From Eledone cirrhosa (lineage: Eukaryota): a stretch of DNA of 64,000 nucleotides. Each line of letters starts with the position of its first letter. The first letter of the stretch is position 1. The DNA is taken from positions 35,712,001 to 35,776,000 of the forward strand of contig OZ024757.1 of the NCBI GenBank assembly GCA_964016885.1. The letters run 5' to 3'. This document shows, one piece after another, positions 27,986 to 57,000 of the stretch. Below the pieces are notes generated by a model, which saw nothing but the letters and a program-made list of their open reading frames with translations, searched no databases and was not told the DNA's origin. The position numbers were made by a program, and so were the translations under genes.

Positions 27986-28189
27986 GTCTCCAATGTGTAA
28001 TAAACCGTGACTCATATATATATACAGAAGAATGTACATAAAAACACATACATACACGCATGTGTATATATATATACATACATGTGTCTCTCTCTCTCCC
28101 TATATATATGTACATATGTGTAAATATGTACATACATATTAGTGTATATATATTGCTATCTATATGCATATTTGTATAATTATACTGTA

Positions 28190-28360
28190 TGGTGAATTGG
28201 CAGTATCGGTAGAGGGTCTGACGCCATGCTTTCCAGCATAGTTACGTCCCTTTACGATCCGAGGTCAACTTTGCCTTTCATCCTTACGGGGTCGATAAAA
28301 TAAAGTACCAGTAATGTACTGGTTAATTACTGACCTTGTGCCTAAAATAGAAACAATTAT
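28190..28360 (+). mobile_element. tRNA-derived SINE fragment (duplicate of 5432-5602)
   Basis: Same sequence as 5432-5602. Confidence 0.75.
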
Positions 28361-28914
28361 TAGTTCAAAGAGAAACCACCATCATAGAGAAACCACCATC
28401 CTACCTGAAATATTATGTTATCATATTAAATATTTCTTATACTGTCATGTTTTTTCTTTAAAACGATTGCATCTCAATAAAGTGAAGAAAACTATTATAT
28501 ACTGTTGTTATATCATTATACTTTAGTTTTAACTTATTATTTCTATGTGTATAAATATAATGTATGTAAGTGTGTTTGAAAATATATAATAATAATATGC
28601 ATGTTTGAAGCAGGGTTCAACGGAAATATCTACACCGGTAACTTAATTAGTGTTACACCTTAGGCATAAACTATTTGGCATTCTTTGAAGGAGGTACTAG
28701 GTTTGTCGCTGTCTTAAATGGAGTATACACGCGCACACGATGCATATATATAACTTGTTTTTCTCTGTACAAAGAGATTGACATCATTTCTTAAATCATT
28801 ATTTAGGGTTTTACAACAAAACATATTGTATGTGTAATTATACAAATTGAATTTAAGTATTTATTTTAAAATTTTACATATTCTTTAGTAGTATATATAT
28901 ATATATATATATAT

Positions 28915-29815
28915 ATTCATTTGTGATGCCATGCATTGTATTGTACACTTCGACATATGGATTACATTCATGCAACACCTCTCTTATCATAGCCATTTTT
29001 TGTCGTGAGCAGTCATTATTTGTTGGTACTAGGGCGGTGGATTGGCAGTATCGGTAGAGCGCCAGACACCATGCTTTACAGCATAGGGTTATGGCCCTTT
29101 ACGTTCTGGGTTCAAATCCCTCCAAGGTTGACTTTGTTTTCATCCTTATGAGGTCGATAGAATAAAGTACCAGTAATTGCTGGCCTTGTGCCAGAAACAA
29201 TTATTTGGTTGTACTTCCAATCTGTGCTACATACCTTCGTTCCCATCAATAATATATAACTGGCCATATTGTGGTGTATTTTCTGCAGGTTACAGAGATG
29301 GGGGTGTAGTGATATGTTTGAACCTGAATATGAAAGCTATACGGGCCTCTGCCGGGTGGTAACACCAAATGAAGTGAAATAAATGGAGTTTTAATTGCAG
29401 ATGTTTCTGTGAAATCAACTGCTTCCTGGCCTCTTTCAAAGAGATTTCTCAGTCTCTCAGGGTATATTTGCAATGGTGGCAACACAACCTTTCCTTTATT
29501 ACAACAGTTACAATTTTCATTTCTAAATTTCAAAGCTCCACAGTGATCACACGAAACATTCATATCACTAATATGAAATTCTTCTACATTTCCATTAATA
29601 TTAATTGTTGGCCAATTTCTCTTACGACGCTCATTATCCATTCTTCTCTGTCTGAATGTTTTCCATTCTGTTGTTTATTATGTAATTAAATAGCTCTGTA
29701 CAATACATAGAGCACTCTTCTTTTCTTTACCTTTTCTATGGAAATACAAGAAAAAACATATAAATATATATATATATGTATATACATAAACAAGACTGTT
29801 ATTGCTCCAACCAGT
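28915..29815 (-). pseudogene. Helitron Rep-helicase N-terminal fragment, copy B
   Basis: ORF 29246-29641 is nearly identical to 6490-6927; same SINE insertion; about 30-bp deletion near 29668 between ATTCT microhomologies. Confidence 0.85.
29032..29199 (+). mobile_element. tRNA-derived SINE in Helitron copy B
   Basis: Same element and flanking direct repeats as 6276-6443. Confidence 0.85.
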
Positions 29816-29959
29816 CTATTTACCTTAGATAACTATCCTAAATATAAATACACCTATACCATACATACATATATCATATATGTTTTTGATGCCGTGGTAT
29901 AGCAGAGATAAGCAAGAAGAGAAAAGAAAATGAAAAGGAGAAAAAAAAGAAGTAAGAAG

Positions 29960-30250
29960 TCGGGGGAGGGACAGACACTTCACCCCAGTCTAAGTGGTCC
30001 CTCAGCCGCAACCTGTGGAAGAAACGTAAAAGCGTTACCTCGGAGCAAGGCCAGAGACACCTGCTACAATAGTCGCCCCTCCTCATGAGGTTCCTGTCAT
30101 CTTTCCTCCCGACTTTATGGAGGAAATCAGCAGTACAGGGACCAAGTATGGCAGAGGTCTCAATGGAGTGGAAGAGGTGAGTCAGGCCTTGGTACTATCT
30201 TACTATCCTCTGCATTGCGGGGTGTGGAGCCTAGGTTTGTGGCTGTAGCT
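29960..30250 (-). mobile_element. Degenerate 3' end of a CRE-like (RLE-encoding) non-LTR retrotransposon
   Basis: Manual minus-strand translation gives IETSAILGPCTADFLHKVG and QVSLALLRGNA, matching the ETxGxLGP and SLAIxRGNA motifs of the other copies in this window. Confidence 0.6.
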
Positions 30251-30324
30251 ATATTTGAACTTTTATATGAAATTTCAGTTTTATATTTTTCACATCATAA
30301 AACTTAATCTTAGTCTTTTGCAGA

Positions 30325-30465
30325 TCATCTTGTTTCATCTCGCAGCACACGATTTGGGAACCACTGCTCTAGAGATAGAAAAAGTATATTTTATGCAGGG
30401 ATTCCCTGAGACATAAAAACTATTTCAAGAGATCGACATGGGTAGAAAGGTTGAGAAATGCTGCA
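30325..30465. mobile_element. hAT-like MITE terminal remnants
   Basis: TTTGGGAACCACTG followed by CTCTAGAG, and AAGGTTGAGAAATGCTG, resemble reverse-complemented hAT/Charlie CAGTGGTTCCCAA-type termini; repeated at about 32845-32985. Confidence 0.45.
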
Positions 30466-30901
30466 CAATGTTCTTTGGTTTTTGTTCACCTTTAAATAAT
30501 CATGTATAAAATATCGGGTGTGCAAGATTTCATGAAAAGGTATAACATTATTTATGCTGGTCTTGCAGGGACTAGCTCCAATTGATTGTTAAAACAATTG
30601 ATTAAATAATAACTAAATAAAATTAATTCTACAATCCTGGATAGGGAATGAACTTATAACTTCATAATAGAAGCCATCTATTCGAGCAGTATTGCCATCT
30701 AAGCCACCAGGTTACTTACAGAACTTCATTCAAATATAAAATATAAAATATATGCCAGACATAGTGAGTTGGAATCTGACTGATTAGTTGGTCATTGTCC
30801 CAGCCAACAGTTTAAATCGCCAACCAGTAGGTGACATCGACTAGGTTGGGAAAACTTGGTTAAGTAGCTCCAGTTATTGCTACGTTAGACATATTCAAGA
30901 C

Positions 30902-31003
30902 TTATCGACACCGAATGGAAGAAAGGTAAAGTTGAACTCAGAGTAAAGAACTGGAAAAATACTGCAAAGAATTCTATCTGATGTTCTAACAATTCTACCA
31001 AAT
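30902..31003 (-). mobile_element. SINE fragment, reverse orientation
   Basis: Reverse complement reads TGGTAGAATTGTTAGAACATCAGA...GTTCAACTTTACCTTTCTTCCATTCGGTGTCGATAA, similar to the SINE body at 5432; paralogs at about 33583-33685 and 44200-44310. Confidence 0.6.
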
Positions 31004-31091
31004 TACCTTATGTATATATATTTATATCTAGAGATAAGAAGAAAACTGAAAGAAAGAAAAGAAAAAAAATGAGACCTTATATGTAACCCAT

Positions 31092-31890
31092 GTTACAACT
31101 CGATATATATATATTTGGGTTGTAACATATTCCCGCCGGTGAAATAAAAATTTTAATAGAAAAACGGCGGGAATATATGTTACAACCCAATCTATATATA
31201 TTTGAGTTGTAACATATATTCCCGCCGTTGAAATAAAAATTTTAATAGAAAAACGGCGGGAATATATGTTACAATCCAATCTACATATAATTGGGTTGTA
31301 ACATATATTCCCGCCGTTGAAATAAAAATTTTAATAGAAAAACGTCGGGAATATATGTTACAACCCAATCTATATATGTTTGGGTTGTAACATATATTCC
31401 CGCCGTTTTTCTATTAAAATTTTTATTTCAACGGCGGGAATATATGTTACAACCCAAATATATGTAGATTGGGTTGTAACATATATTCCCGCCGTTTTTC
31501 TATTAAAATTTTTATTTCGACGGCGGGAATATATGTTACAACCCAAATATATATAGATAGGGTTGTAACATATATTCCCGCCGTTTTTCTATTAAAATTT
31601 TTATTTCAACGGCGGGAATATATGTTACAACCCAAATATATGTAGATTGGGTTGTAACATATATTCCCGCCGTTTTTCTATTAAAATTTTTATTTCGACG
31701 GCGGGAATATATGTTACAACCCAAATATATATAGATAGGGTTGTAACATATATTCCCGCCGTTTTTCTATTAAAATTTTTATTTCAACGGCGGGAATATA
31801 TGTTACAACCCAAATATATGTAGTTTGGGTTGTAACATATATTCCCGCCGTTTTTCTATTAAAATTTTTATTTCAACGGCGGGAATATAT
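31092..31890. repeat. Tandem array of nine 89-bp palindromic units
   Basis: 26-bp inverted arms GGGTTGTAACATATATTCCCGCCGTT / AACGGCGGGAATATATGTTACAACCC around a 22-nt AT-rich loop, plus a 15-nt spacer; unit starts at 31117, 31204, 31293, 31382, 31471, 31560, 31649, 31738 and 31827. Confidence 0.97.
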
Positions 31891-31947
31891 ACCCTGAGAG
31901 ACTGAGAAATCTCTTTCAAAGAGATTTCTCAGTCTCTCAGGGTATAT
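31887..31947. other. Perfect 61-bp fold-back palindrome
   Basis: ATATACCCTGAGAGACTGAGAAATCTCTTT-C-AAAGAGATTTCTCAGTCTCTCAGGGTATAT: 30-bp perfect arms with a 1-nt loop. Confidence 0.97.
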
Positions 31948-32335
31948 TTGCAATGGTGGCAACACAACCTTTCCTTTATTACAACAGTTACAATTTTCAT
32001 TTCTAAATTTCAAAGCTCCACAGTGATCACACGAAACATTCATATCACTAATATGAAATTCTTCTACATTTCCATTAATATTAATTGTTGGCCAATTTCT
32101 CTTACGACGCTCATTATCCATTCTTCTCAGTCTGAATGTTTTCCATTCTAAGTCTATTTGCATGGAATAATTATATTCTGTTGTTTATTATGTAATTAAA
32201 TAGCTCTGTACAATACATAGAGCATTCTTCTTTTCTTTACCTTTTCTATGGAAATACAAGAACAAACATATATATATATATATATATATATGTGTGTATA
32301 TACATAAACAAGACTGTTATTGCTCCAACCAGTCT
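31911..32335 (-). pseudogene. Helitron N-terminal fragment, copy C
   Basis: ORF 31873-32163 matches copies A and D up to RLRNLFER, then runs into the hairpin. Confidence 0.85.
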
Positions 32336-32479
32336 ATTTACCTTTGATAACTATCCTAAATATAAATACACCTATACCATACATACATATATCATATATG
32401 TTTTTGATGCCGTGGTATAGCAGAGATAAGCAAGAAGAGAAAAGAAAATGAAAAGGAGAAAAAAAAAGAAGTAAGAAGT

Positions 32480-32770
32480 CGGGGGAGGGACAGACACTTC
32501 ACCCCAGTCTAAGTGGTCCCTCAGCCGCAACCTGTGGAAGAAACGTAAAAGCGTTACCTCGGAGCAAGGCCAGAGACACCTGCTACAATAGTCGCCCCTC
32601 CTCATGAGGCTCCTGTCATCTTTCCTCCCGACTTTATGGAGGAAATCAGCAGTACAGGGACCAAGTATGGCAGAGGTCTCAATGGAGTGGAAGAGGTGAG
32701 TCAGGCCTTGGTACTATCTTACTATCCTCTGCATTGCGGGGTGTGGAGCCTAGGTTTGTGGCTGTAGCTA
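32480..32770 (-). mobile_element. CRE-like retrotransposon 3' fragment (duplicate of 29960-30250)
   Basis: Near-identical to 29960-30250. Confidence 0.6.
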
Positions 32771-33218
32771 TATTTGAACTTTTATATGAAATTTCAGTTT
32801 TATATTTTTCACATCATAAAACTTAATCTTAGTCTTTTGCAGCTCATCTTGTTTCATCTCGCAGCACACGATTTGGGAACCACTGCTCTAGAGATAGAAA
32901 AAGTATATTTTATGCAGGGCTTCCCTGAGACATAAAAACTATTTCAAGAGATCGACATGGGTAGAAAGGTTGAGAAATGCTGCACAATGTTCTTTGGTTT
33001 TTGTTCACCTTTAAATAATCATGTATAAAATATCGGGTGTGCAAGATTTCATGAAAAGGTATAACATTATTTATGCTGATCTTGCAGGGACTAGCTCCAA
33101 TTGAGAGTTGTACCAATTCCCACTAAACTCGAAACTCCTGGACAATATATACATATCTTTATAAGTTCCTGTGTATTGTGTCGTTGTATAATGAAACATA
33201 AATATATACCATGCATGT

Positions 33219-33464
33219 CAGTCAGATTTGAACTCACTATATTTGGCGTTTTATAGATATAATTTGTTTGTTAAAACAATTGATTAAATAATAACTAAAT
33301 AAAATTAATTCTACAATCCTGGATAGGGAATGAACTTATAACTTCATAATAGAAGCCATCTATTCGAGCAGTATTGCCATCTAAGCCACCAGGTTACTTA
33401 CAGAACTTCATTCAAATATAAAATATAAAATATATGCCAGACATAGTGAGTTGGAATCTGACTG
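33219..33464. mobile_element. Probable MITE with imperfect 29-bp terminal inverted repeats
   Basis: CAGTCAGATTTGAACTCACTATATTTGGC pairs with GCCAGACATAGTGAGTTGGAATCTGACTG; CAGT start is Tc1/mariner-like, but there is no clean TA target duplication. Confidence 0.5.
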
Positions 33465-35119
33465 ATTAGTTGGTCATTGTCCCAGCCAACAGTTTAAATC
33501 GCCAACCAGTAGGTGACATCGACTAGGTTGGGAAAACTTGGTTAAGTAGCTCCAGTTATTGCTACGTTAGACATATTCAAGACTTATCGACACCGAATGG
33601 AAGAAAGGTAAAGTTGAACTCAGAGTAAAGAACTGGAAAAATACTGCAAAGAATTCTATCTGATGTTCTAACAATTCTACCAAATTACCTTATGTATATA
33701 TATTTATATCTAGAGATAAGAAGAAAACTGAAAGAAAGAAAAGAAAGAAAAATGAGACCTTATATGTAACCCATGACCAGGATTGAAACCAAAACCATGA
33801 CTACCACCATCTCTGGTTTCACCCACCAGACCACCATGAAAGATACAAAAATCTGCTTTTTTAATATTTATAAGCCTACTTTCAATATTAAAGTAATTAA
33901 CATGTGGTGTTGTTCATGCCTTTCTCTATGTTATTGGTAAAAAATAAAGTATTTAAACCTCAAATTTTGTTATTCAAATATGCTTACTTATGTAATTATA
34001 AATGTTGCAGAATACACACACATATATAGATGTGAAAATATTCAGGACCCCAACGGCTGTGCTACTGCCGTTTCGACATCTATATATATATCTTTTAGTC
34101 CTAGGCTCTTTCAGCGCAGAAAGAATTCTCCAATGATCACAACCAGTGGAAGCACTTTAGTTTAATTAGATTAGCGGCGGCTTTTTCGAGTCTGAGGTTG
34201 ACTGCCAGATATATATATATATATTGTTATACTTTGCTAGAATCCCGGAGAACAACAGAAAAATGATGAGTTCAGAGTTTAAAAAACAACAGAAAGAACG
34301 GCATAAATAAATATATATCAGTGGTTTAAAACCTACTCTGCACCATGCCCCACCTCGACATTTAAGATATGTTTATGCCCCCCTTTTAATATAAAAACAA
34401 TCCGAGTCTTGTAAAAGTGTTATTACTGTAATATAAAGTAGAAACCCTTTATTTAAAGAAGGCTACGATGCAGCGATGATCAAAGCAGAGCCAAAAATGT
34501 AAACAAATTTCTCGCAGGTGCTGCCAGATACACGATAACATGTGTAGACGAAGTGTAACAGGGAGTTGGGTCGTATTATATCACTTTCAAATTGACCCCT
34601 ATTATATTCAAATTATCCCCTGTGGGGCGTGCACCCCACGTTGAGAATCCCTCATAAATAAATATATGTGAGTGTGTTGCTATGACTGCTATTTCTCGCA
34701 GGTTTACTGCAGTCCTGTAGACGCACACCAAAAACCGGAAGTGGCAGCCATTAAAAAACTTTGGCTTAAAATCAGTGAAAAGTTTTTAAACAATAGAAAA
34801 TTTAATGTAAACAAACCAGGGTGTTTTTGCCAAGAAAGATAACTCTTGCCTTACTTAATCGCAAAAATCGAGATAAAAATTTTGCGGGTGTGCAGTTTAC
34901 ACGCTAGGAATAACCTGCTAGAAATAGCAGTCATAGCAACTCACATATATTTATATATCATATATATATTGCGGCTGTGCAGTTGATTTGGTCTTGTTTG
35001 CTGGTATTTGACTGCTATTTCTAGCATGTATGAACACTTTAGAAATAGCAGCGAAACACGGAAAACATCAGAAAGAAGGACACACACCTATATATATATT
35101 TTGGATATGTGTGTGTTTG

Positions 35120-35127
35120 TTTATATG

Positions 35128-35158
<31 letters not shown>

Positions 35159-35203
35159 ATATATATATATGTATGTATGTATATATATATATATATATGT
35201 ATG

Positions 35204-35281
<78 letters not shown>

Positions 35282-35312
35282 TTATATATATACATATATA
35301 TATATATAAATA

Positions 35313-35352
<40 letters not shown>

Positions 35353-35380
35353 CATATATATATATATATATATACATATA
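35120..35380. repeat. (TA)n microsatellite at the palindrome centre
   Basis: About 260 bp of TA with TATG/CATA interruptions that are arranged roughly symmetrically. Confidence 0.95.
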
Positions 35381-36083
35381 AACAAACACACACATATCCA
35401 AAATATATATATAGGTGTGTGTCCTTCTTTCTGCTGTTTTCCGTTTTTCGCTGCTATTTCTAAAATGTCCATACATGCTAGAAATAGCAGCAAATGCGAC
35501 CAAACAATCTGCACGCCCGCAAAATTTTTGACTCGATTATTGCGATCAAGTAAAACAAGAGTTATCTTTCTTGGTAAATTGTTTAAAAACTTTTGCCTGA
35601 TTTTAAGCCAAAGTTTTTTAATGGCTGCCACTTCCAGTTTTTTGGTGTGCGTCTACAGTACTGCAGTAAACCTGCTAGAAATAGCAGTCATAGCAACACA
35701 CTCACATATATTTATTTATGAGGGATTCTCAACGTGGGGCGCACCCCCCCACAGGGGATAATTTGAATATAATAGGGGTCAATTTGAAAGTGATATAATA
35801 CGACCAAACTTCCAGATACACATGTTATCGTGTATCTGACAGCACCTACGAGAAGTTTATTTACATTTTGAAGTTTGTTTTGATCATCGCTGCATCGCAG
35901 CTTTGTTTAAATAAAGGGTTTCTACTTTATATTACAGTAATAAAAGTTTTACTTCGTCTACACATGTTATCGTGTATCCGGCAGCACCTATGGGCTGTTT
36001 GTTTACGTTTTGGTGTTTATTTTGATCATCGCCCACATCGCAGGTTTGTTTAATTAAAGGTTGGGAGGGGGATCACTGATATA

Positions 36084-38830: not shown

Positions 38831-38881
38831 ACTGTTGTAGGCTTATTTAGATTTTTTTCCATACCCGTAATACTTCTGTTA

Positions 38882-40908
38882 GTTGACCTATACTAAAGGA
38901 CTTCACTGATAGGGTTATATGTGTTATAGTTTCCCAGTTGACCTATACTAAAGGACTTCACTGATAGGGTTATGTGTGTTATAGTTTCCCAGTTGACTTA
39001 TACTAAAGGACTTCATTGATAGGGTTATATGTGTTATAGTTTCCCAGTTGACCTATACTAAAGGACTTCACTGATAGGGTTATATGTGTTATAGTTTCCC
39101 AGTTGACCTATACTAAAGGACTTCACTGATAGGGTTATATGTGTTATAGTTTCTCAGTTGACCTATACTAAAGGACTTCACTGATAGGGTTGTATGTGTT
39201 ATAGTTTCCCAGTTGACCTATACTAAAGGACTTCACTGATAGGGTTATATGTGTTATAGTTTCTCAGTTGACCTATACTAAAGGACTTCACTGATAGGGT
39301 TATATGTGTTATAGTTTCCCAGTTGACCTATACTAAAGGACTTCACTGATAGGGTTATATGTGTATAGTTTCCCAGTTGACCTATACTAAAGGACTTCAC
39401 TGATAGGGTTATATGTGTTATAGTTTCCCAGTTGACCTATACTAAAGGACTTCACTGATAGAGTTATATGTGTTATAGTTTCCCAGTTGACCTATACTAA
39501 AGGACTTCACTGATAGGGTTATATGTGTTATAGTTTCCCAGTTGACCTATACTAAAGGACTTCACTGATAGGGTTATATGTGTTATAGTTTCCCAGTTGA
39601 CCTATACTAAAGGACTTCACTGATAGGGTTATATATGTTATAGTTTCCCAGTTGACCTATACTAAAGGACTTCACTGATAGGGTTATATGTGTTATTGTT
39701 TCCCAGTTGACCTATACTAAAGGACTTCACTGATAGGGTTATATGTGTTATAGTTTCCCAGTTGACCTATACTAAAGGATTTCACTGATAGGGTTATATG
39801 TGTTATAGTTTCCCAGTTGACCTATACTAAAGGAATTCACTGATAGGGTTATATGTGTTATAGTTTCCCAGTTGACCTATACTAAAGGACTTCACTGATA
39901 GGGTTATATGTGTTATAGTTTCCCAGTTGACCTATACTAAAGGACTTCACTGATAGGGTTATATGTGTTATAGTTTCCCAGTTGACCTATACTAAAGGAC
40001 TTCACTGATAGGGTTATATGTGTTATTGTTTCCCAGTTGACCTATACTAAAGGACTTCACTGATAGGGTTATATGTGTTATAGTTTCCCAGTTGACCTAT
40101 ACTAAAGGACTTCACTGATAGGGTTATATGTGTTATAGTTTCCCAGTTGACCTATACTAAAGGACTTCACTGATAGGGTTATATGTGTTATAGTTTCCCA
40201 GTTGACCTATACTAAAGGACTTCACTGATAGGGTTATATGTGTTATTGTTTCCCAGTTGACCTATACTAAAGGACTTCACTGATAGGGTTATATGTGTTA
40301 TAGTTTCCCAGTTGACCTATACTAAAAGGACTTCACTGATAGGGTTATATGTGTTATAGTTTCCCAGTTGACCTATACTAAAGGACTTCACTGATAGGGT
40401 TATATGTGTTATAGTTTCCCTTTTGACCTATACTAAAGGACTTCACTGATAGGGTTATATGTGTTATAGTTTCCCAGTTGACCTATACTAAAGGACTTCA
40501 CTGATAGGGTTATATGTGTTATAGTTTCCCAGTTGACCTATACTAAAGGACTTCACTGATAGGGTTATATGTGTTATAGTTTCCCAGTTGACCTATACTA
40601 AAGGACTTCACTGATAGGGTTGTATGTGTTATAGTTTCCCAGTTGACCTATACTAAAGGACTTCACTGATAGGGTTATATGTGTTATAGTTTCCCAGTTG
40701 ACCTATACTAAAGAACTTCACTGATAGGTGTATATGTGTTATAGTTTCCCAGTTAACCTATACTAAAGGACTTCACTGATAGGGTTATATGTGTTATAGT
40801 TTCCCAGTTGACCTATACTAAAGGACTTCACTGATAGGGTTATATGTGTTATAATTTCCCAATTGACCTATACTAAAGGGCTTCACTGACTGGGTTATAT
40901 GTGTTATA
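38882..40908. repeat. 55-bp satellite array 1 (about 37 copies)
   Basis: Unit GTTGACCTATACTAAAGGACTTCACTGATAGGGTTATATGTGTTATAGTTTCCCA; period checked (39541 to 39596); highly homogeneous. Confidence 0.98.
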
Positions 40909-41139: not shown

Positions 41140-43059
41140 GCACCTTTTTGAATTTGAATGTCTAACACCCGTGGACATGCCTACAAAATCAGAAAGCAGC
41201 ACAGCTCCCATGACTTTTGGAAACATTGTTTCACGTTCAGAGTTGCTGAAGCATGAAACAAACTACCTGCATCAGTTGTTAGCTGTTGAGACACTGCATC
41301 CTTTAAAACCTCCATGGAACAAACTACCTGCATCAATTGTTAGTTGCCGAGACACCACATCCTTTAAAACCTCCATGGAACAAACTCCCTGCATCAGTTG
41401 TTAGCTGTCGAGACACTGCATCCTTTAAAACCACCATGGAACAAACTACTTGCATCAGTTGTTAGCTGTGGAGACACTGCATCCTTTAAAACTTCCATGG
41501 AACAAAGTACCTACATCAGTTGTTAGCTGTGGAGACACTGCATCCTTTAAAACTTCCATGGAACAAACTACCTGCATCAGTTGTTAGCTGTCGAGACACT
41601 GCATCCTTTAAAACCTCCATGGAACAAACTCCCTGCATCAGTTGTTAGCTGTCGAGACACTGCATCCTTTAAAACCTCCATAGAACAAACTCCCTGCATC
41701 AGTTGTTAGCTGTCGAGACACTGCATCCTTTAAAACCACCATGGAACAAACTCCCTGCTTCAGTTGTTAGATGTCGAGACACTGCATCCTTTAAAATCTC
41801 GATGGAACAAACTACCTGCATCAGTTGTTAGCTGTCGAGACACTGCATCCTTTAAAACCTCCATGGAACAAACTACCTGCATCAGTTGTTAGCTGTCGAG
41901 ACACTGCATCCTTTAAAACCTCCATGGAACAAACTACCTGCATCAGTTGTTAGCTGTCGAGACACTGCATCCTTTAAAACCACCATGGAACAAACTACCT
42001 GCATCAGTTGTTAGCTGTCGAGACACTGCATCCTTTAAAACCTGCATGGAACAAACTACCTGCATCAGTTGTTAGCTGTCGAGACACTGCATCCTTTAAA
42101 ACCTGCATGGAACAAACTATCTGCATCAGTTGTTAGCTGTCGAGACACTGCATCCTTTAAAACCTGCATGGAACAAACTACCTGCTTCAGTTGTTAGATG
42201 TCGAGACACTGTATCCTTTAAAACCTCCATGGAACAAACTGCCTGCATCAGTTGTTAGCTGTGTAGACACTACATCCTTTAAAACCTCCATGAAACAAAC
42301 TACCTGCATCAGTTGTTAGCTGTTGAGACACTGCATCCTTTAAAACCTCCATGGAACAAACGACGAGTGTGGCGATGATAATGATGATGCCAGCCACATA
42401 GGACACAGGCCTTAATAAGACACAGAGCCACCTAGGGTACAGATCTCAGTGAGATACTCGGCTACCCAGGGTAGAGACCTTAGAGAGACACAGAGTTACC
42501 TAGGGTACAGATCTCAGAGAGACACAGTTGTTAGCTGTGGAGACACTGCATCCTTTAAAACCTCCATGGAACAAACTACCTGCATCAGTTGTTAGCTGTT
42601 GAGACACAGCATCCTTTAAAACCTCCATGGAACAAACTACCTGCATCAGTTGTTAGATGTCGAGACACAGCATCCTTTAAAACCTCCATGGAACAAACTA
42701 CCTGCATCAGTTGTTAGATGTCGAGACACCGCATCCTTTAAAACCTCCATGGAACAAACTATCTGCATCAGTTGTTAGCTGTTGAGACACTGCATCCTTT
42801 AAAACCTCCATGGAACAAACTACCTGCATCAATTGTTAGCTGTGGAGACACTATATCCTTTAAAACCTCCATGGAACAAACTACCTGCATCAGTTGTTAG
42901 GTAATATCCCCCCTCCTTACACACACACACACAGGTATATCATGACTCATACACTGTTCACTTTCCTGACATGTGTACATTATTCTATATACCATACATG
43001 CACCTTTGATGAGTTGTAGTGCACCTTAGCACTGTACACAATAATTCATTATTATTATT
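41140..43059 (+). mobile_element. CR1-like LINE 3' end containing an internal tandem amplification
   Basis: From 41161 the sequence reads SNTRGHAYKIRKQHSSHDFWKHCFTFRVAEA*NKLPASVVSC*DTASFKTSM, matching the TRGH..K...FF..RV...WN.LP..VV...FK C-terminus of CR1-group ORF2; UTR-like segment at 42900-43045 ends in an (ATT)n tail. Confidence 0.8.
41252..42900. repeat. 61-bp satellite (about 18 + 6 copies) derived from LINE ORF2
   Basis: Unit CATGGAACAAACTACCTGCATCAGTTGTTAGCTGTCGAGACACTGCATCCTTTAAAACCTC; period checked (41941 to 42002); interrupted at 42361-42525. Confidence 0.97.
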
Positions 43060-43263: not shown

Positions 43264-43444
43264 ATCATCTAACTCTCTCTATTTCAGATCTGATATGTTT
43301 CAACAATTCCTTTCGTATGATCACATCCAAATATGTTCGCTACCGTTGTGAGGTAATCCAGCCCTGACGACGACTGTGGTGATGACAGCGATGATAATGA
43401 TGATGACAGTGTCAATGACAGCGATGATAATGATGATGACAGCC

Positions 43445-43830
43445 ACATAGGACACAGGCCTTAATAAGACACAGAGCCACCTAGGGTACAGATCTCAGTG
43501 AGATACCCAGCTACCTAGGGTACAGACCTTAGAAAGACACAGAGCCACCTAGGGTACAGACCTTAGAGAGACACAGAGCCACCTAGGGTACAGACCTTAG
43601 AGAGACACAGAGCCACCTAGGGTACAAACCTTAGAGAGACACAGAGCCACCTAGGGTACAGACCTTAGAGAGACACAGAGCCACCGAGGGTACAGATCTT
43701 AGAGAGAGACAGAGCCACCTAGGGTACAGACCTTAGAGAGACACAGAGCCACCTAGGGTACAGACCTCAGTGAGACACAGAGACACCTAGGGTAGAGAGA
43801 GACAGACAACCAGCTAGGGTACAGACATCA
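43445..43830. repeat. 34-bp minisatellite (about 11 copies)
   Basis: Unit ACACAGAGCCACCTAGGGTACAGACCTTAGAGAG; period checked (43571 to 43605). Confidence 0.93.
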
Positions 43831-45639: not shown

Positions 45640-46343
45640 ATTTAAACATTTAAAATATGTTTATGTCCCCCTTTAATATAAAAACAAACAGAGTCTTGTA
45701 AAAGTGTTATTACTGTAATATAAAGTAGAAATCCTTTAATTAAACAAAGCTACGATGCAGCGATGATAAAAACAAACTGCAAACAAACTTCTCGTAGGTG
45801 CTGCCAGATACACGATAACATGTGTAGACGAAGTGTAACTGGGTCGTATTTTTCAAATTGACCCCTATTATATGCAAATTATCCCCTGTGGGGCGTGCAC
45901 CCCACGTTGAGAATCCCTCATAAATAAATATATGTGAGTGTGTTGCTATGACTGCTATTTCTAGCAGGTTTACTGCAGTCCTGTAGACGCACAACAAAAA
46001 CCGGAAGTGGCAGCCATTAAAAAACTTTGGCTTAAAATCAGCCAAAAGATTTTCAATAATAGTAAAATTTTATTTTTGACAAGGACGATAACTTTTGTCT
46101 TACTTAATCGCAAAAATCGAGGCAAAAATTTTGAGGGTGTGCAGTTTACACGCTAAAAATAAACCTGCTAGAAATAGCAGTCATAGCAACTCACTTACAT
46201 ATATTTATATATCATATATATATATATATGATATATATATGGACACTTTAGAAATAGCAGCGAATAACAGAAAGGACACACACACACACACATATATATA
46301 TATACACACACACACATATATATATATGCCCCAGCACACACAC

Positions 46344-46374
<31 letters not shown>

Positions 46375-47428
46375 TATATATATATGCCCCAGCATACACA
46401 CACACACATATATATGCCCCAGCATGGTCTTGGACGATCGTCTAACTAAGGCCAATAATAAAATACTTCAAAATAAATTAAACACCCCTAAATCCGGGGT
46501 TACAACTTGGATTACTTAAAAGTCAGTAAAGCTGTAAAGATTCTATATTGTAAATAGGTGGTCGCATGTTCGAATCCGGGCAAATCCCGAGAAAAATAAC
46601 GAAAAGAAGGACAATGTAAAAATAGCAGCCATAGACGAGGGGAGGACACACACACGCACACACACATATACACACACATGTGTATATATATATATATGTG
46701 TCTGTGTATGTGTTTGGCTGCTATATATATATATAGCGGTCAACACACACACACGTACATATATAAGTGTGTGTGTTTGGCTGATATATATATATATATA
46801 TATATGATATATAAATATATGTGAGTTGCTATGACTGCTATTTCTAGCAGGTTTATTTTAGCGTGTAAACTGCACACCCGCAAAATTTTTGCCTCGATTT
46901 TTGCGATTAAGTAAGACAAAAGTTATCGTCCTTGTCAAAAATAAAATTTTACTTTTATTGAAAATCTTTTGGCTGATTTTAAGCCAAAGTTTTTTAATGG
47001 CTGCCACTTCCGGTTTTTGTTGTGCGTCTACAGGACAGCCAGAAACCTACTAGAAATAGCAGTCATAACAACACACTTATGTATATTTATATATCAGGGA
47101 TTCTCAACGAAGGGTACACGCCCCACAGGGGGCAATTTGAATTTAATAGGGGCCAATTAGAAAGTGATATAATACGACCAAACTTCCAGTTACACTTTGT
47201 TCACATGTTATCGTGTATCTGGCAGCAGCTACGAGAAGTTTGTTTATATTTTGAAGTTTGTTTTGATCATCGCGGCATCGTAGCTTTGTTTAATTAAAGC
47301 ATTTCTACTTTATATTACAGTAGTAACACTTTTACAAGACTCGGTTTATTTCTATATTAAAGGGGAACATAAACCTAATTTTTAAACGTTGAGGTGGGGC
47401 ATGGAGCAAAAAAGGTTTGGAACTACTG
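45640..47428. mobile_element. Long inverted-repeat element 2
   Basis: Arms about 45640-46230 and 46790-47395 are reverse complements (the same [23 protein letters not shown] translation appears on opposite strands); right end GGTTTGGAACTACTG is hAT-like; microsatellite-rich spacer. Confidence 0.8.
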
Positions 47429-47454
47429 AAGACAACGAATCATCGTTTTTATTA

Positions 47455-47941
47455 ATGTAAACAAACTTCTCGCAGGTGCTGCCAGATACACGATAACATG
47501 TCTATACGAAGTGTAACAGGGAGTTGGGTCGTATTATATGACTTTCAAATTGACCCCTATTATATTAAAATTATCCCCTGTGGGGCGTGCACCCCACGTT
47601 GAGAATCCCTCATAAATAAATATATGTGAGTGTGTTGCTATGACTGCTATTTCTAGCAGGTTTACTGCAGTCCTGTAGACGCACAACAAAAACCGGAAGT
47701 GGCAGCCATTAAAAAACTTTGGCTTAAAATCAGGCAAAAGTTTTTTTAACAATTTGCCAAGAAAGATAACTCTTGTCTTACTTAATCGCAAAAATCGAGG
47801 CAAAAATGTTGCGGGTGTGCAGTTTGTTTGGTGTATTTCACTGCTATTTCTAGCATATATGGACACTTTAGAAATAGCAGCGAAACACGGGAAACATAAG
47901 AAAGAAGGTCACACACGTATATATATATATATAATTATGTA

Positions 47942-47983
<42 letters not shown>

Positions 47984-48500
47984 TACATATATATATGCAC
48001 AGATATATACATTTAAATATATATATTTATATATATATACACGCGCGCACACACACCTATACGTAGATATGGGTGTGTGTATAGCTGGTATATATATATA
48101 TATGTATGGGTGAGTGTATAGCTGGTATATATATATATATATATATAGGTGTGTGTCCTTCTTTCTGCTGTTTTCCGTTTTTCGCTGCTATTTCTAAAGT
48201 GTCCATACATGCTAGAAATAGCAGTCAAATACACCAAACAAACTGCACACCCGCAAAATTTTTGCCTCGATTTTTGCGATTAAGTAAGACAAGAGTTATC
48301 TTTCTTGGCAAATTGTTAAAAAACTTTTGCCTGATTTTAAGCCAAAGTTTTTTAATGGCTGCCACTTCCGGTTTTTGTTGTGCGTCTACAGGACTGCAGT
48401 AAACCTGCTAGAAATAGCAGTCATAGAAACACACTCACATATATTTATTTATGAGGGATTCTCAACATGGGGTGCACGCCCCACAGGGGATAATTTGAAT
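47455..48500. mobile_element. Long inverted-repeat element 3 (truncated), (TA)n centre
   Basis: Arms about 47560-47920 and 48135-48500 are reverse complements; same family as elements 1 and 2. Confidence 0.8.
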
Positions 48501-49359
48501 ATCCCCCTCTTTATATCAATTAGCACTAACTCTCTCCCTCTCTATATCTACTACACGGCACTCTCTTCCAATACCCCTCTCTATATGAAGTAACACCAAA
48601 CTCTCCCCCTCTCTATATATTAAGCACTAAGTCAGGAATTTTTTTCTTCTTTCGTGCAGAGAGAGTAAAGTTGATTAAATCTATTGCAGTGAATTACTGG
48701 TATTTTATTTAATAAAAATTAAAATTTACTATTTGTCTTCGTTTAATTTTCGTTTTTCTTTACATAGTTTCGTTTCGTTAAATGTCTCCAGAATTTGTTT
48801 TTACTTTTACCGGATATTGAAGGTGTAAACTTGGTGTTGTCTAGAAACGTGTTAGAAATATTTTTCTTTTAATTGTGAAGAATTTAACCGCAAAGTAAGT
48901 TTTTTTTACTGTTTATTTGTGGCTGGGACAACGTATGGTATGTGTTAATGTAAATGGTGAAGGTTTAAAGATTCTTTTTACAACTGAAAATCAGTTTGTT
49001 GTTGCTGCTAATTACTTAACGCATGGAATAGATTTAAAAAATACACGATTGTTTCTCGGAAGAGAGGAAGAAGAAACAAATCACAGAAGCGGGTAGCACA
49101 CACATTTGGGACCACATACAACACAAAAACAGGTAATCCACACATCTGGGACCACATACAACACACCAGCAGGTAATACATACATCTAGGACCACATAAG
49201 CAGGTAATACACACATCTAGGACCACATACAACACACAAGCAGGTAATACACACATCTAGGACGACATACAACCAAAGGCAGGCGAAAGGGGTGGACAAA
49301 CGAGCTGCTACTAGATCAAAAGATAACAGTATCGCGAGGAGCACTGGGAAACCTCTCTA

Positions 49360-49570: not shown

Positions 49571-49719
49571 TTAACAGTGATAGATATTCTGTCTAAAGGA
49601 GGGGCGTACAACAGGCGGCCCGCGGGCCACAATCGAACCCACCTGACCAGTCAGAGTGGCCCGCAATGACTCTTGTAGGCTTATTTAGAATTTTTTCCAT
49701 ACCCGTAATACTTCTGTTA

Positions 49720-50952
49720 GTTGACCTATACTAAAGGACTTCACTGATAGGGTTATATGTGTTATAGTTTCCCAGTTGACCTATACTAAAGGACTTCACT
49801 GATAGGGTTATATGTGTTATAGTTTCCCAGTTGACCTATACTAAAGGACTTCACTGATAGGGTTATATGTGTTATAATTTCCCAGTTGACCTATACTAAA
49901 GGACTTCACTGATAGGGTTATATGTGTTATAGTTTCCCAGTTGACCTATACTAAAGGACTTCACTGATAGGGTTATATGTGTTATAGTTTCCCAGTTGAC
50001 CTATACTAAAGAGCTTCACTGATAGAGTTATATGTGTTATAGTTTCCCAGAGGGCTTCACTGATAGGGTTATATGTGTTATAGTTTCCCAGTTGACCTAT
50101 ACTAAAGGACTTCACTGATAGGGTTATATGTGTTATAGTTTCCCAGTTGACCTATACTAAAGGACTTCACTGATAGGGTTATATGTGTTATAATTTCCCA
50201 GTTGACCTATACTAAAGGACTTCACTGATAGGGTTATATGTGTTATAGTTTCCCAGTTGACCTATACTAAAGGACTTCACTGATAGGGTTATATGTGTTA
50301 TAGTTTCCCAGTTGACCTATACTAAAGAGCTTCACTGATAGAGTTATATGTGTTATAGTTTCCCAGAGGGCTTCACTGATAGGGTTATATGTGTTATAGT
50401 TTCCCAGTTGACCTATACTAAAGGACTTCACTGATAGGGTTATATGTGTTATAGTTTCCCAGTTGACCTATACTAAAGGACTTCACTGATAGGGTTATAT
50501 GTGTTATAGTTTCCCAGTTGACCTATACTAAAGGACTTCACTGATAGGGTTATATGTGTTATAGTTTCCCAGTTGACCTATACTAAAGGACTTCACTGAT
50601 AGGGTTATATGTGTTATAGTTTCCCAGTTGACCTATACTAAAGGACTTCACTGATAGGGTTATATGTGTTATAGTTTCCCAGTTGACCTATACTAAAGGA
50701 CTTCACTGATAGGGTTATATGTGTTATAGTTTCCCAGTTGACCTATACTAAAGGACTTCACTGATAGGGTTATATGTGTTATAGTTTCCCAGTTGACCTA
50801 TACTAAAGGACTTCACTGATAGGGTTATATGTGTTATAGTTTCCCAGTTGACCTATACTAAAGGACTTCACTGATAGGGTTATATGTGTTATAGTTTCCC
50901 AGTTGACCTATACTAAAGGGCTTCACTGATAGAGTTATATGTGTTATAGTTT
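49720..50952. repeat. 55-bp satellite array 2 (about 22 copies)
   Basis: Same unit as 38882-40908; two identical truncated units (TTTCCCAG-AGGGCTTCAC) near 50050 and 50365. Confidence 0.98.
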
Positions 50953-51524: not shown

Positions 51525-54049
51525 TTACATCTGTCTGTGAACTCTTGAAAAAGCAACATACAATTGTCCAGGGTTAAATACTTGCTCAGGGAGGAACAGA
51601 CCCACTTTATCATGTATTTGACCATGGTTCTTGTTGATTGTCATGGCATATGACAGTCTTAATGGAAACTGGGGTCTTTCCAAAGTAAAAAGGATGTTGG
51701 CACCACTGGGGGCTAACTTCAGTCTTGGGATCAAAACACACCTGCCCATCAAAGGACCATAGATATGAGAAGCTTTGATAAAATGTTTATGCAGTTCTAC
51801 TACTTCTAATCTTGTGCCATTACATAATCTGTTCTGGATTGAAATATTCCATAGAAGCATTATTATTGATCCTGCTTTTAATTGGAGTTTGTGAGGCGGC
51901 ATCCCAGAAGGTGTAAGCAAGTTCATTTAGCTTGAACCAGGCAGCAAGGGTCCCTGCATTTCTACCACAACCTGAGCATTGCCTCTTTGAAAGTAAACTC
52001 TGTTTGTTCTCCAGGTGTGTGGCTAGGCTGTATACTGTAAGTGATGTACCATGAAGCTTAAATTCGGAGAGACACGACACTGCTTCTGGCTGAGACACAT
52101 ACCTGCAACAAAGATAGGTTCTTATTTCATCATGGTTGTGTTGGTTCTGAGCCTCATTAGGTAATGCATTATTCGTTACTTCTATAGATGTACAATCATG
52201 CCCCATGTAACATATTTAAAGAGGTACTTGACACTTTTTACAGAAGCGCAAACTTCAACATTAATATGTGCACAATATTTCTTAAGCAAAAAGGCATTAA
52301 ATGGCACAACATTCCTGTTATCTACTGAATGTCATCCAATTTACACTGCAGTTCCTGTCTTGCACCTCCTGTACTCTGGGTATCCATTTAGGTTCAATAA
52401 TGTTTCCCTTCTGTAGGTTTTTGGATAGTTCTTTTGGAAAAATCCATTTTGTATAAATGGGGGAAAAGGGTTTCCAGAACCACATGGCCCATGGATCATA
52501 AACTTTTAAATCTGCTCATGTAGTACTTGATCATCTTCCAATGCAGGTATTTCTGCTGACACGATTCTGTCAATGTCTTCTCTGTTTCTTATCTTGTCTT
52601 CATTTCTTAAGGCTCAGTGTTATCATCTGTTTAGATAATTCATTAAACCATTATACTCATCCACTCACAATTGGGCTTGATTGTTCCTCAAATATTGAAG
52701 CCTGCATCCCTCTACTTTCATATAGGCTTCCACTAAATACTGCTAAAATAATTTACCTGCCCTATATATCGCACTAAATCCTCCTCTATATGCTATACTG
52801 TATATGTAATACTCCTGCATTGTCAGTCTATTGCAAACACAGGTCCTGCATTCCTCTCCATGTCACTATGCCACCAAAATTCACCATTATGGGTCGGTCA
52901 TGAGGTCCAAGTGGCATGAATTATGTGATATTTTCTGAGGAGGATGGTCTTTAGGAAAGATGATAATATCTCTTTGTACAGGTGGTCTGCCCTCAATCCC
53001 CCACAAAACAACAGCTATCATTACTAGTTGGTAAATTATAGCAGCTCATATCTGATCCTCTTCTAAATCTTAATTCACAGTTCTGTACACGACAATTTTC
53101 TCTTCTTGCACTTTGCTGTTTGATGCCATTCATTGTATTGTACAATTCGACATATGGATTACATTCATGCAACACCTCTCTTATCATAGCCATTTTTTGT
53201 GGTGAGCACTCATTATTTGTTGGTACTAGGGCGGTGGATTGGCAGTATCGGTAGAGCGTCAGACACCATGCTTTGCAGCATAGGGTTATGGCCCTTTACG
53301 TTCTGGGTTCAAATCCCTCCAAGGTTGACTTTGTTTTCATCCTTATGAGGTCGATAGAATAAAGTACCAGTAATTGCTGGCCTTGTGCCGGAAACAATTA
53401 TTTGGTCGTACTTCCAATCTGTGCTACACACCTTCGTTCCCATCAATAATATATAACTGGCCATATTGTGGTGTATTTTCTGCAGGTTACAGAGGTGGGG
53501 GTGTAGTGATATGTTTGACCCTGAATATGAAAGCTATACGGGCCTCTGCCGGGTGGTAACACCAAATGAAGTGAAATAAATGTAGTTTTAATTGCAGATG
53601 TTTCTGTGAAATCAACTGCTTCCTGGCCTCTTTCAAAGAGATTTCTCAGTCTCTCGGGGTATATTTGCAATGGTGGCAACACTACCTTTCCTTTATTACA
53701 ACAGTTACAATTTTCATTTCTAAATTTCAAAGCTCCACAGTGATCACACGAAACATTCATATCACTAATATGAAATTCTTCTACATTTCCATTAATATTA
53801 ATTGTTGGCCAATTTCTCTTACGACGCTCATTATCCATTCTTCTCTGTCTGAATGTTTTCCATTCTAAGTCTATTTGCATGGAATAATTATATTCTGTTG
53901 TTTATTATGTAATTAAATAGCTCTGTACAATACATAGAGCATTCTTCTTTTCTTTACCTTTTCTATGGAAATACAAGAACAAACATATATATATATATAT
54001 GTATATATGTGTGTATATACATAAACAAGACTGTTATTACTCCAACCAG
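51525..54049 (-). pseudogene. Internally deleted, decayed Helitron Rep-helicase, copy D (longest)
   Basis: In order on the minus strand: Cys cluster and GPYSFHIQGQTYH (53443-53880); LHECNPYV..YNLPTSND (52993-53193); GKLF*QYLVEAYMKVEGCRLQYLRNNQ (about 52680-52760); IDRIVSAEIP..KFMIHGPCG (about 52480-52575); DNRNVVPFNAFLLKKYCAHINVEVCASVKSVKYLFKY (about 52210-52322); GHD..DEIRTYLCCRYVSQPEA (51820-52206); Pif1-type C-terminus PSGMPPHKLQLK..LCNGTRL..QFPLRLSYAMTINK..GQLYVAFSRV (51525-51926). Multiple stops and frameshifts. Confidence 0.93.
53229..53396 (+). mobile_element. tRNA-derived SINE in Helitron copy D
   Basis: Same element and insertion site as in copies A and B; flanking repeats at 53212-53227 and 53397-53412. 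Confidence 0.85.
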
Positions 54050-57000
54050 ATGAAACTCTGTCATGTAATGTTATGGACATCTCTGCCCCTGTGGCTAATA
54101 ATTCTGTCATGTAATGTTATGGACATCTCTGCCCCTGTGGCTAATAATTCTGACATGTAATGTTATGGACATCGCTGCCCCTGTGGCTAATAATTCTGAC
54201 ATGTAATGTTATGGACATCTCTGCCCTGTGGCTAATAATTCTGAGAGAGATGAAACACGTGAGGGATTAGAGAGAGATAAAACAAGTGAGGGATTAGAGT
54301 GTTGAAACAAGAGAGAGAGAGGAAGAGAGAGAGAGAGCGAGATGAAATGAGACAGGGAGAGCGAGATGAAACGCGAGAGTGAGAGAAGCGAGATGAAACG
54401 AGAGAGTGAGAGCGAGATGAAACGAGAGAGAGAGAGAGCGAGATGAAACGAGACAGAGAGAGCGAGATTTAATGAGAGAGAGAGAGAGCGGGATGGAACG
54501 AGACAGAGATGAAACGAGAGAGAGAGGAAACGAGAGAGAGGAAACGAGAGTAGAGAGCGAGATGAAACAGGAGAGAGAGAGCGAGATGAAACGAGAGGGA
54601 GAGAGAGATGAAACGAGGGAGATAGAGATGAAACGAGAGAGAGGAAGAGAGAGATGGAACGAGCGAGAGGAAGAGAGAGATGGAACGAGAGAGAGGAAGA
54701 CAGAGATGAAACGAGAGAGAGCGAGATGAAACGAGAGAGCGAGATGAAACGAGATAGAGAGAGAGCGAGATGAAACGAGAGAGAGGAAGAGAGAGAGCGC
54801 GAGATGAAACTCTGTCATGTAACGTTATGGACATATCTGCCCTTGGGGCTATAATTGTCATGTAATGTTATGGACATCTCTGCCCCTGTGGCTAATAATT
54901 CTTTCATGTAATGTTATGGACATCTCGGCCCCTGTGGCTAATAATTCTGACATGTAATGTTATGGACATCTCTGCCCCTGTGGCTAATAATTCTGACATG
55001 TAATGTTATGGACATCTCTGCCCCTGTGGCTAATAATTCTGACATGTAATGTTATGGACATCTCTGCCCTGTGGCTAATAATTCTGAGAGAGATGAAACA
55101 CGTGAGGGATTAGAGAGAGATAAAACAAGTGAGGGATTAGAGTGTTGAAACAAGAGAGAGAGAGGAAGAGAGAGAGAGAGCGAGATGAAATGAGACAGGG
55201 AGAGCGAGATGAAACGTGAGAGTGAGAGAAGCGAGATGAAACGAGAGAGTGAGAGCGAGATGAAACAAGAGAGAGAGAGCGAGATGAAACGAGACAGAGA
55301 TAGCGAGATTTAATGAGAGAGAGAGAGAGCGGGATGGAACGAGACAGAGAGGAAACGAGAGAGAGAGGAAACGAGAGAGAGGAAACGAGAGTAGAGAGCG
55401 AGATGAAACAGGAGAGAGAGAGCGAGATGAAACGAGAGGGAGAGAGAGATGAAATGAGGGAGATAGAGATGAAACGAGAGAGAGGAAGAGAGAGATGGAA
55501 CGAGAGAGAGGAAGACAGAGATGAAACGAGAGAGAGAGAGAGATGAAACGAGAGAGAGAGAGAGCGCGAGATGAAACGACAGAGAGAGAGACAGATGAAA
55601 GGAGGGAGATAGAGATGAAACGAGAGAGAGGAAGAGAGAGATGGAACGAGCGAGAGGAAGAGAGAGATGGAACGAGAGAGAGGAAGACAGAGATGAAACG
55701 AGAGAGAGCGAGATGAAACGAGAGAGAGAGAGCGCGAGATGAAACTCTGTCATGTAACGTTATGGACATATCTGCCCTTGGGGCTATAATTGTCATGTAA
55801 TGTTATGGACATCTCTGCCCCTGTGGCTAATAATTCTGTCATGTAATGTTATGGACATCTCTGCCCCTGTGGCTAATAATTCTTTCATGTAATGTTATGG
55901 ACATCTCGGCCCCTGTGGCTAATAATTCTGACATGTAATGTTATGGACATCTCTGCCCCTGTGGCTAATAATTCTGACATGTAATGTTATGGACATCTCT
56001 GCCCTGTGTCTAATAATTCTGACATGTAATGTTATGGACATCTCTGCCCCTGTGGCTAATAATTCTGTCATGTAATGTTATGGACATCTCTGCCCCTGTG
56101 GCTAATAATTCTGACATGTAATGTTATGGACATCTCTGCCCCTGTGGCTAATAATTCTGCCATGTAATGTTATGGACATCTCTGCCCCTGTGGCTAATAA
56201 TTCTGAGAGAGATGAAACAAGTGAGGGATTAGAGATAGATAAAACAAGTGAGGGATTAGAGTGTTGAAACAAGAGAGAGAGAGAGCGAGATGAAATGAGA
56301 CAGGGAGAGCGAGATGAAACGCGCGAGTGAGAGAAGCGAGATGAAACGAGAGAGTGAGAGCGAGATGAAACGAGAGAGAGAGAGAGCGAGATGAAACGAG
56401 ACAGAGAGAGCGAGATGTAATGAGAGAGAGAGAGAGCGGGATGGAACGAGACAGAGAGGAAACGAGAGAGAGGAAACGAGAGTAGAGAGCGAGATGAAAC
56501 GAGAGGGAGAGAGAGATGAAACGAGAGAGCGAGATAGAGATGAAACGAGAGAGAGGAAGAGAGAGATGGAACGAGAGAGAGGAAGACAGAGATGAAACGA
56601 GAGAGAGAGAGAGAGCGAGATGAAACGAGAGAGAGAGAGCGCGAGATGAAACGAGAGAGAGAGAGCGCGAGATGAAACGAGAGAGAGAGAGCGCGAGATG
56701 AAACGACAGAGAGAGAGACAGATGAAAGGAGGGAGATAGAGATGAAACGAGAGAGAGGAAGATAGAGATGGAACGAGAGAGAGCAAGAGAGAGATGGAAC
56801 GAGAGAGAGGAAGACAGAGATGAAACGAGAGAGAGAGAGAGCGAGATGAAACTCTGTCATGTAATGTTATGGACATATCTGCCCTTGGGGTTAATAATTG
56901 TCATGTAATGTTATGGACATCTCTGCCCCTGTGGCTAATAATTCTGTCATGTAATGTTATGGACATCTCTGCCCCTGTGGCTAATAATTCTGAGAGAGAT

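Follow-up and report, generated by a model that had tools for sequence, protein, structure and literature searches.

What is the array of palindromic repeats that separates two copies of a host segment in the genome of Eledone cirrhosa, and how did it come to lie there? We analysed a window of 64,000 nucleotides (contig OZ024757.1 of assembly GCA_964016885.1, positions 35,712,001 to 35,776,000 of the forward strand); coordinates given below are those of this window unless a contig or locus is named. An initial annotation, made from the letters of the window alone, had described nine 89-bp palindromic units that change orientation mid-array. It had proposed rolling-circle copying of a tiny dumbbell-shaped template or hairpin-primed synthesis, captured at a break, with a tandemly amplified MITE as the alternative.

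Tandem Repeats Finder reported a period of 89 with 9.0 copies over 31090-31890. Nine GC-stem hairpins were found, spaced 89 bp apart, with cores 1-3 in one sense and cores 4-9 reverse-complemented, which confirms both the nine palindromic units and the change of orientation within the array. The array folds far better than its shuffles (z of about -12; 0 of 200 shuffles equally good). Folding resolved the unit as 28+22+28+11, with 28-bp stems and loops of 22 and 11 bases, and not as the 26-bp arm and 15-nt spacer claimed before. The 89-bp unit thus comprises a 78-bp MITE, with 28-bp inverted ends and a 22-bp core, and an 11-bp TA-derived spacer.

On the left, the array opens with the outer 14-bp tip of a MITE inverted end (31090..31103, no strand assigned), whose ATG start is common to the host, followed by spacer 1, 11 bp of pure TA alternation (31104..31114, no strand). 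The true start is therefore 31090, with the arm tip, and not 31092 as annotated, whereas the annotated end at 31890 holds. Unit 1 (31115..31190, + strand, which is the sense of the parent mariner described below) is 76 bp long, with a 2-bp deletion in its left inverted end, and is followed by unit 2 (31202..31279, +) and unit 3 (31291..31368, +). The central spacer (31369..31379, +) has the sense of units 1-3 and forms the loop of the turnaround 28-bp stem. Beyond it stand unit 4 (31380..31457, -), units 5-8 (31469-31546, 31558-31635, 31647-31724 and 31736-31813, -) and unit 9 (31825..31890, -), whose last inverted end is missing its outer 12 bp and whose final ATAT is common to a snap-back copy of host DNA. 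Because the spacers are oriented as well, and the one preceding unit 4 keeps the sense of units 1-3, the switch must lie inside the first inverted end of unit 4, at 31380-31407, in agreement with the annotated arm at about 31382-31407. In units 5-8 (31469..31813 as a whole) the 11-bp spacers are mirrored. The described alternation of loop and spacer variants as a 178-bp dimer was also borne out: TTTCA/TTTCG and the spacer variants alternate across units 4-8, forming a 178-bp block in two copies, and this two-copy block is found within units 5-8. Open reading frames that cross the array were considered and set aside as by-products of the repeat.

Our data demonstrate that the array unit is, with near certainty, a MADE1-like mariner MITE of 78 bp. 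The 24-bp arm has 802 exact matches in the 3.0-Gb genome, and the C13 match that heads the list belongs to a solitary palindromic element within (TA)n. With this solo copy as query, 424 candidates were obtained, of which the 40 that were scored lie on many contigs; similarly, a 20-mer end pattern gave 150 exact matches on many contigs. Solo copies are mostly 74-80 bp long. A profile built from 44 of them matches 9/9 window units, units 2 and 3 among them, with a best E per unit of 5e-20 to 5e-14, and has no match at E<=1 in the rest of the window. The sequence had been said to occur nowhere else in the window; this is correct for the window, but genome-wide both further arrays and the solo family exist. 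The array unit agrees with the solo majority at 72/80 columns, and the average solo copy at 0.90. Moreover, a search pattern free of any TA requirement led to 25 loci, of which 5 lack a complete copy, and TA stands on both sides of 20/20 complete copies, against a background TA frequency of 0.126; this count supersedes an earlier one of 39/44, which was partly biased by its pattern. The MITE family thus targets TA, and it often sits in (TA)n. At one position of the inverted end, both arms of the array unit carry a change that solo copies show on one arm, which fits homogenisation of the arms.

The dispersed solo copies, their TA flanks and the parent element described below confirm the tandem-MITE alternative as far as the nature of the unit is concerned, and the genome-wide search for solitary copies that had been suggested as a check did return solo MITEs with TA on both sides. 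A known dispersed MITE that explains the array fully had been named as grounds for refuting the annotation, and the dispersed family counts as such, although no description of it turned up in the open-access texts searched. A recent octopus annotation discards repeats <100 bp (PMC13282606).

The element at L161:48-1530, judged by its sequence, is the parent of the MITE family. It was found by pairing two end-pattern matches 1.5 kb apart on C10, is 1,483 bp long, and carries the MITE's ends, TA flanks and a decayed mariner transposase. Pfam matches comprise HTH_48 (E 1e-12), Transposase_1 at the cut-off and DDE_3. The reading frame contains WVPHEL and YSPDLAP, which we take to be mariner-transposase motifs. 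It is interrupted by three stops and, close to the third aspartate, by a frameshift, and DD34D spacing holds only if the frame is read across the latter. The MITE majority corresponds to the first 35 and the last ~48 bases of this element, overlapping at ATAA. Internal deletions of this type have been reported for mosquito MITEs. The Gnome, Elf and Goblin MITEs arose from Ozma (DD37E) through microhomology-mediated internal deletion, with an overlap of 6-8 bp (PMC3814204). The MITE studied here likewise consists of joined parent ends, but its overlap is ~4 bp and its parent is a decayed mariner, not a DD37E element. In its design, the MITE also resembles MADE1, the 80-bp MITE of human Hsmar1, which has 37-bp ends with 6 bp between them (PMC1784062). 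Both are near-palindromic non-autonomous derivatives, of ~80 bp, of a mariner of ordinary size (here 1.3 kb plus an insertion), whereas the present MITE has 28-bp ends and a 22-bp core and belongs to a different family.

The insertion, of ~190 bp, lies near the 3' end of the parent (L161 ~1280-1470) and resembles a short repeat at window 29036-29200; the element at L163 ends as L161 does. Loci with a Pfam Transposase_1 match were examined as candidate parents as well: among the best 30 of 150 scored (3185 candidates), none has this end, and they belong to other mariner families. At L098, L100, L104, L107 and L125 we observed at least three such other families, of ~1.25-1.3 kb, whose ends of ~30 bp start like those of the present family.

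How is the array joined to its host? It lies between two copies of a host segment. Copy 2 (31911..33775, +, 1,865 bp) corresponds to the single segment of array-free alleles, and copy 1 (29431..31092, +, 1,662 bp) lacks, relative to copy 2, ~30 bp near 29669 and ~160 bp near 30585. The array had been placed exactly between the copies. It does lie between them, but 31891-31910, which is inverted host DNA, separates it from copy 2. This DNA belongs to a 24-bp inverted copy (31887..31910, -) of host 31924-31947, a net insertion of 20 bp. Together with the host's 13-bp palindrome at 31911-31923, the inverted copy forms a perfect 29-bp hairpin at 31887-31947. At this right joint the last unit is 12 bases short, and the 4 bp ATAT are common to the unit and the inverted host copy. 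At the left joint, host DNA ending in CCCATG passes into the 14-base outer tip of an inverted end, with ATG common to both (3-bp microhomology). Host 31082-31087 is able to pair with 31092-31097 in a 6-bp stem, a weak hint of snap-back on this side too.

Mariner transposase joins its element to TA (PMC4344528), and an insertion made by it would show complete termini joined to a duplicated TA. Instead, both ends of the array break within an inverted end, with neither terminus nor TA at either joint, and the empty site of the array-free alleles contains no TA and no array remnant. These joints were therefore not made by mariner transposase, and the array is very probably not a transposase insertion. 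In snap-back SD-MMEJ, hairpin-primed synthesis yields an inverted insertion that ends in microhomology (PMC5728401). A palindrome of 13 bp, an inverted copy of 24 bp, which is within the range of that process, and a closing ATAT are all present at the right joint. The junction microhomologies and the inverted host copy fit snap-back SD-MMEJ. The joints are of a repair type, with microhomology and a snap-back copy, and this part of the initial annotation, which had placed the array at a break, was upheld.

Several further features of the surroundings were noted. The left breakpoint of the duplication, at 29431, lies inside a fragment at 29246-29674 (-). The frames at 29246-29674 (-) and 53443-53901 (-) have no Pfam match; they show motifs that, presumably, resemble Helitron Rep-helicase N-termini. 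A decayed Pif1 helicase fragment is present at 51528-51923 (-) (Pfam Pif1_2B_dom, E 6.6e-14). Truncated copies of the flank and the start of the segment, 98-99% identical, occur at 5242-7018, 28000-29669 and 53121-54049 and are cut by satellite. Minisatellites of 55, 61 and 34 bp occupy 38881-40908, 49719-50952, 41252-42900 and 43441-43798 in the same multi-copy segment. A large CT/GA-rich 24-bp satellite, with 27-bp and 46-bp units interleaved and several strand changes, fills 1-27983 and 54056-64000.

Transposase might nevertheless have acted before the break. Repeated insertion into the TA spacer could have built a cluster of MITEs in two orientations; trimming of this cluster and its capture at the duplication would have followed. 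Transposon tandems are known to form by such double insertion (PMC5932611), and this route would suit a family that targets TA and often sits in (TA)n, as well as the intact inner ends and TA-like spacers of the array. However, units of both orientations carry the same private changes and differ from window unit 4 by a mean of 1.6 bases (418 complete units), whereas solo copies differ from their majority by ~10%. The spacers are mirrored too, and both outer ends of the array are without terminus and TA. We consider this route to have only a slender chance of being correct.

To ask how often the array arose, we turn to its other copies. The right-end pattern identified at least 87 arrays, and all of these fall into three clusters, one each on C18, C20 and C25. 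Flanks were the same in 30/30 locus rows, which overlap, and in 31/31 arrays listed, and neither set had been chosen on its flanks. Common junctions in every inspected array point to one origin followed by amplification together with the surroundings, and a single origin with passive spread is highly probable. Cores within 2 mismatches number 746. At 8.9 units per array, 87 arrays account for about as many, which makes a large donor array in addition to these unlikely; those listed among the 746 are the exact ones in the clusters, and solos with 1-2 mismatches are not visible there. Neither the window nor 13 array-free loci contained a donor MITE with the private changes of the array, and a genome search for a TA-flanked array-type end gave a single match, which is another array. 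Solos on C6 and C11 with one array-type end have ordinary cores. Two arrays on C25, at 27.45 and 28.87 Mb, appeared to join two right flanks head to head, but their junctions are ordinary. Nor is the array a one-off capture at this site: at least 87 descendants exist, of which it is one, and changes in unit number and switch point came later.

The array and the 1,865-bp segment together make a 2.7-kb unit, and some loci have this larger unit in tandem. Genome-wide, 54 instances of the uninterrupted host joint were counted. Of 12 distinct array-free loci, picked from these 54 for having no nearby array, 11 show one intact segment with both normal flanks; the array-free L205 is without the first ~150 bp of the segment. 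A tree of 87 segments requires six changes to account for 10 array-free rows, three of them on the longest branches; this tree has a midpoint root only, with 39/84 forks open, and the order of gain and loss is not readable from it. Several array-free alleles are nested among array-bearing copies, so these are probably collapses rather than the ancestral state. A separate cluster of the host segment was observed at G000:C25:14.69-14.72 Mb (L194, L196 and L197), with a period of ~13 kb and array-free in the 3 copies fetched.

The arrays descended from this origin differ in ways that bear on the change of orientation. We parsed 63 of them, requiring both junction anchors, and the parse is accordingly not counted as evidence for shared junctions. 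All 63 contain exactly one core-orientation switch, and their size varies from 6 to 15 units, with 2-5 units in the left arm and 2-12 in the right. In 45 arrays the central spacer is oriented like the left arm, and in 18 like the right. Two markers occur in the order >AATA <TAAC in 28/63 arrays and in the order >TAAC <AATA in 16/63, which represents an inverted block across the turn; with a third marker added, these orders are found in 10 and 14 arrays. Markers of the left arm also turn up in mirrored form on right arms: GG occurs 38 times on left and 24 times on right arms, TGAG 60 and 28 times, and CGCA 26 and 15 times. Since the copies are related, none of these numbers is a tally of events. 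From the marker patterns we infer that at least two exchange events have taken place between the arms. The variable unit number and switch point, and the inverted marked block in 16 arrays, show that the arms still exchange. Template switching between inverted repeats is reported to yield both homogenisation of the arms and inversion of the spacer (PMC8604942).

How did the first turn arise? Nascent-strand fold-back on the end-spacer-end hairpin predicts the order of the window exactly, and so does one inversion between two inverted ends. Fold-back is not confined to the array: among solo-type loci, 4/50 have an extra inverted end or a whole inverted copy across (TA)n; the extra inverted copy at L127 is 100% identical over 80 bp. 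Outside the array clusters, the first 100 of 422 rows contained two sites with end-to-end junctions, each of them a partial fold-back. No head-to-tail duplication of a whole solo MITE was seen, the sole direct repeat being one of a 14-bp tip at L163. Template switching is a probable origin of the flip. With respect to the two processes first proposed, hairpin priming is able to explain the flip, but rolling-circle copying of a dumbbell was not demonstrated. Palindromes were also observed elsewhere. At L058:1386-2018, a ~630-bp palindrome (92%) contains two mirror MITE copies that share their private variants and are both embedded in (TA)n, and the window has several inverted repeats of 500-900 bp around (TA)n at 34318-35952 and 45645-48502, possibly TA-anchored fold-backs.

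A different account of the turn invokes priming from both sides, in which both break ends copied one small RNA or DNA template and the products met mid-array. The same strand is indeed read inward from either host end, and 63/63 arrays have the same polarity and one switch. The 63 arrays stem from one event, however, so their shared polarity counts once, and only a single origin was found. Retrozymes, which have been proposed to be Penelope-dependent (10.64898/2026.07.22.740005), offer a possible comparison, but no ribozyme was detected (0 Rfam matches at gathering score in 28000-54000), and in particular the monomer has no hammerhead ribozyme, the mark of a non-LTR retrozyme, at that score in that region. 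Priming from both ends is thus improbable.

Since the sequence is strongly palindromic, the turn could also have been created during assembly from palindromic reads. Among the records listed from other sequencing runs, none spans the switch and none extends 31 bases to either side of a junction; runs X6 and X7 contributed small shares only and did not cover the array. The runs listed as containing the sequence include none of RNA, which counts neither way. On the other hand, contigs of run X1 cover every array bin, with a summed depth of 55-3480, and run X2, which carries another species label, provides the pieces 31075-31169 and 31140-31258 at a depth of ~7. Moreover, the junctions are constant in at least 87 arrays, and consistent, lineage-specific marker haplotypes on three contigs make an artefact unlikely. 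We regard it as highly improbable.

Does the array require a circular template? The MITE and 11 bases of its TA flank could have existed as an 89-nt circle or single-stranded dumbbell that was copied round and joined into the break, the flip being added by fold-back or by later inversion. The 89-bp unit folds as two hairpins (about -32 kcal/mol). Furthermore, the ends of the array are in phase: the left starts at inverted-end position 15-17 and the right stops at 13-16, giving a whole number of units, as if one circle had been opened. Bari1 of Drosophila melanogaster provides a precedent. This Tc1/mariner element forms tandem arrays with partial elements at the array ends; one such array is flanked by a ~500-nt duplication unlike that of normal transposition, and rolling-circle copying and dimer expansion are both debated as its source (PMC5932611, PMC8834629). 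Against a circle, 5/36 pairings of candidate microhomology sites would be in phase by chance, one origin was found despite hundreds of solo copies in the genome, and the 6-15 units among descendants make the present length uninformative about the first event. Rolling-circle copying is unlikely in our view, and the circle model is not needed to explain the array; a chromosomal rather than a circular template seems somewhat the better choice.

Taken together, the array was likely written once, by template-switching break repair, where the two copies of a tandemly duplicated 1,865-bp segment meet. In this scheme, a broken host end would pair through ATG with the inverted end of a MITE in (TA)n, and synthesis would then slip back through the TA flanks, producing head-to-tail copies, at least two; the remainder could be obtained from later unequal exchange. 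The new strand would fold on its end-spacer-end hairpin and copy itself backwards, which would leave the central spacer in the old sense and the subsequent core and spacers reversed, although a later inversion between two inverted ends could give the same order. The other host end would snap back at the 13-bp palindrome, copy 24 bases and join the array through ATAT. Subsequently, the surrounding segment would have been amplified on three contigs, with the 2.7-kb unit expanding or collapsing while the arms kept exchanging. We find it rather more plausible than otherwise that this reading is right as a whole, namely a templated break-repair array with a fold-back mirror half that was later multiplied, resized and partly re-inverted. 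The array is most likely neutral repeat DNA, with no function evident.

Is this a new kind of element? Like Bari1 arrays, the present array contains whole elements, has partial ends (a 14-bp tip and an end with 12 bp missing) and is accompanied by a long flanking duplication of 1,865 bp. In contrast, Bari1 arrays are head-to-tail throughout, whereas this array turns once, and the terminal deletion shared by inner Bari1 junctions has no counterpart in the intact inner ends found here. The unit here is an 89-bp non-coding MITE plus spacer, a snap-back marks one joint, and at least 87 descendants record later change. Tandem repeats derived from MITEs through stem-loop or microhomology events are also known from the Xenopus satellites Xstir and miDNA4 and from the Angel stem-loop model (PMC12628747, PMC9659126). 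In Xstir and miDNA4 an internal part of the MITE is repeated, but the monomer of the present array comprises the entire MITE and its TA flank. The right joint shares with SD-MMEJ the hairpin-primed inverted insertion and closing microhomology (PMC5728401), and the homogenised arms and inverted centre resemble the results of template switching (PMC8604942). Both processes are described for tens of bases, whereas here arms exchange in blocks of several 89-bp units and the array spans hundreds of bases. The open-access texts searched contained no whole-MITE array with one turnaround. The array is thus Bari1-like, in miniature and mirror-image form, with repair-type joints and continuing exchange between its arms, and is not a new element class but an unusual variant of a known transposon-to-satellite route.

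The route from DNA transposon to tandem array is still argued, with rolling circle, double insertion and repair all under discussion (PMC5932611). It is doubtful that the break captured a concatemer made, without transposase, by copying an 89-nt MITE circle or dumbbell from one or both break ends. If the circle reading were true, the array would be direct genomic evidence for circle amplification of the smallest mariner MITEs and a miniature mirror-image counterpart of Bari1 arrays. The parent, the solo copies, the fold-backs, the array-free alleles and at least 87 marked descendants are all found in one genome, so the later steps can be read directly. These steps, namely gain and loss of units, inversion of the centre and mirroring of the arms, make the array a tidy case study of how a DNA transposon becomes a tandem array.
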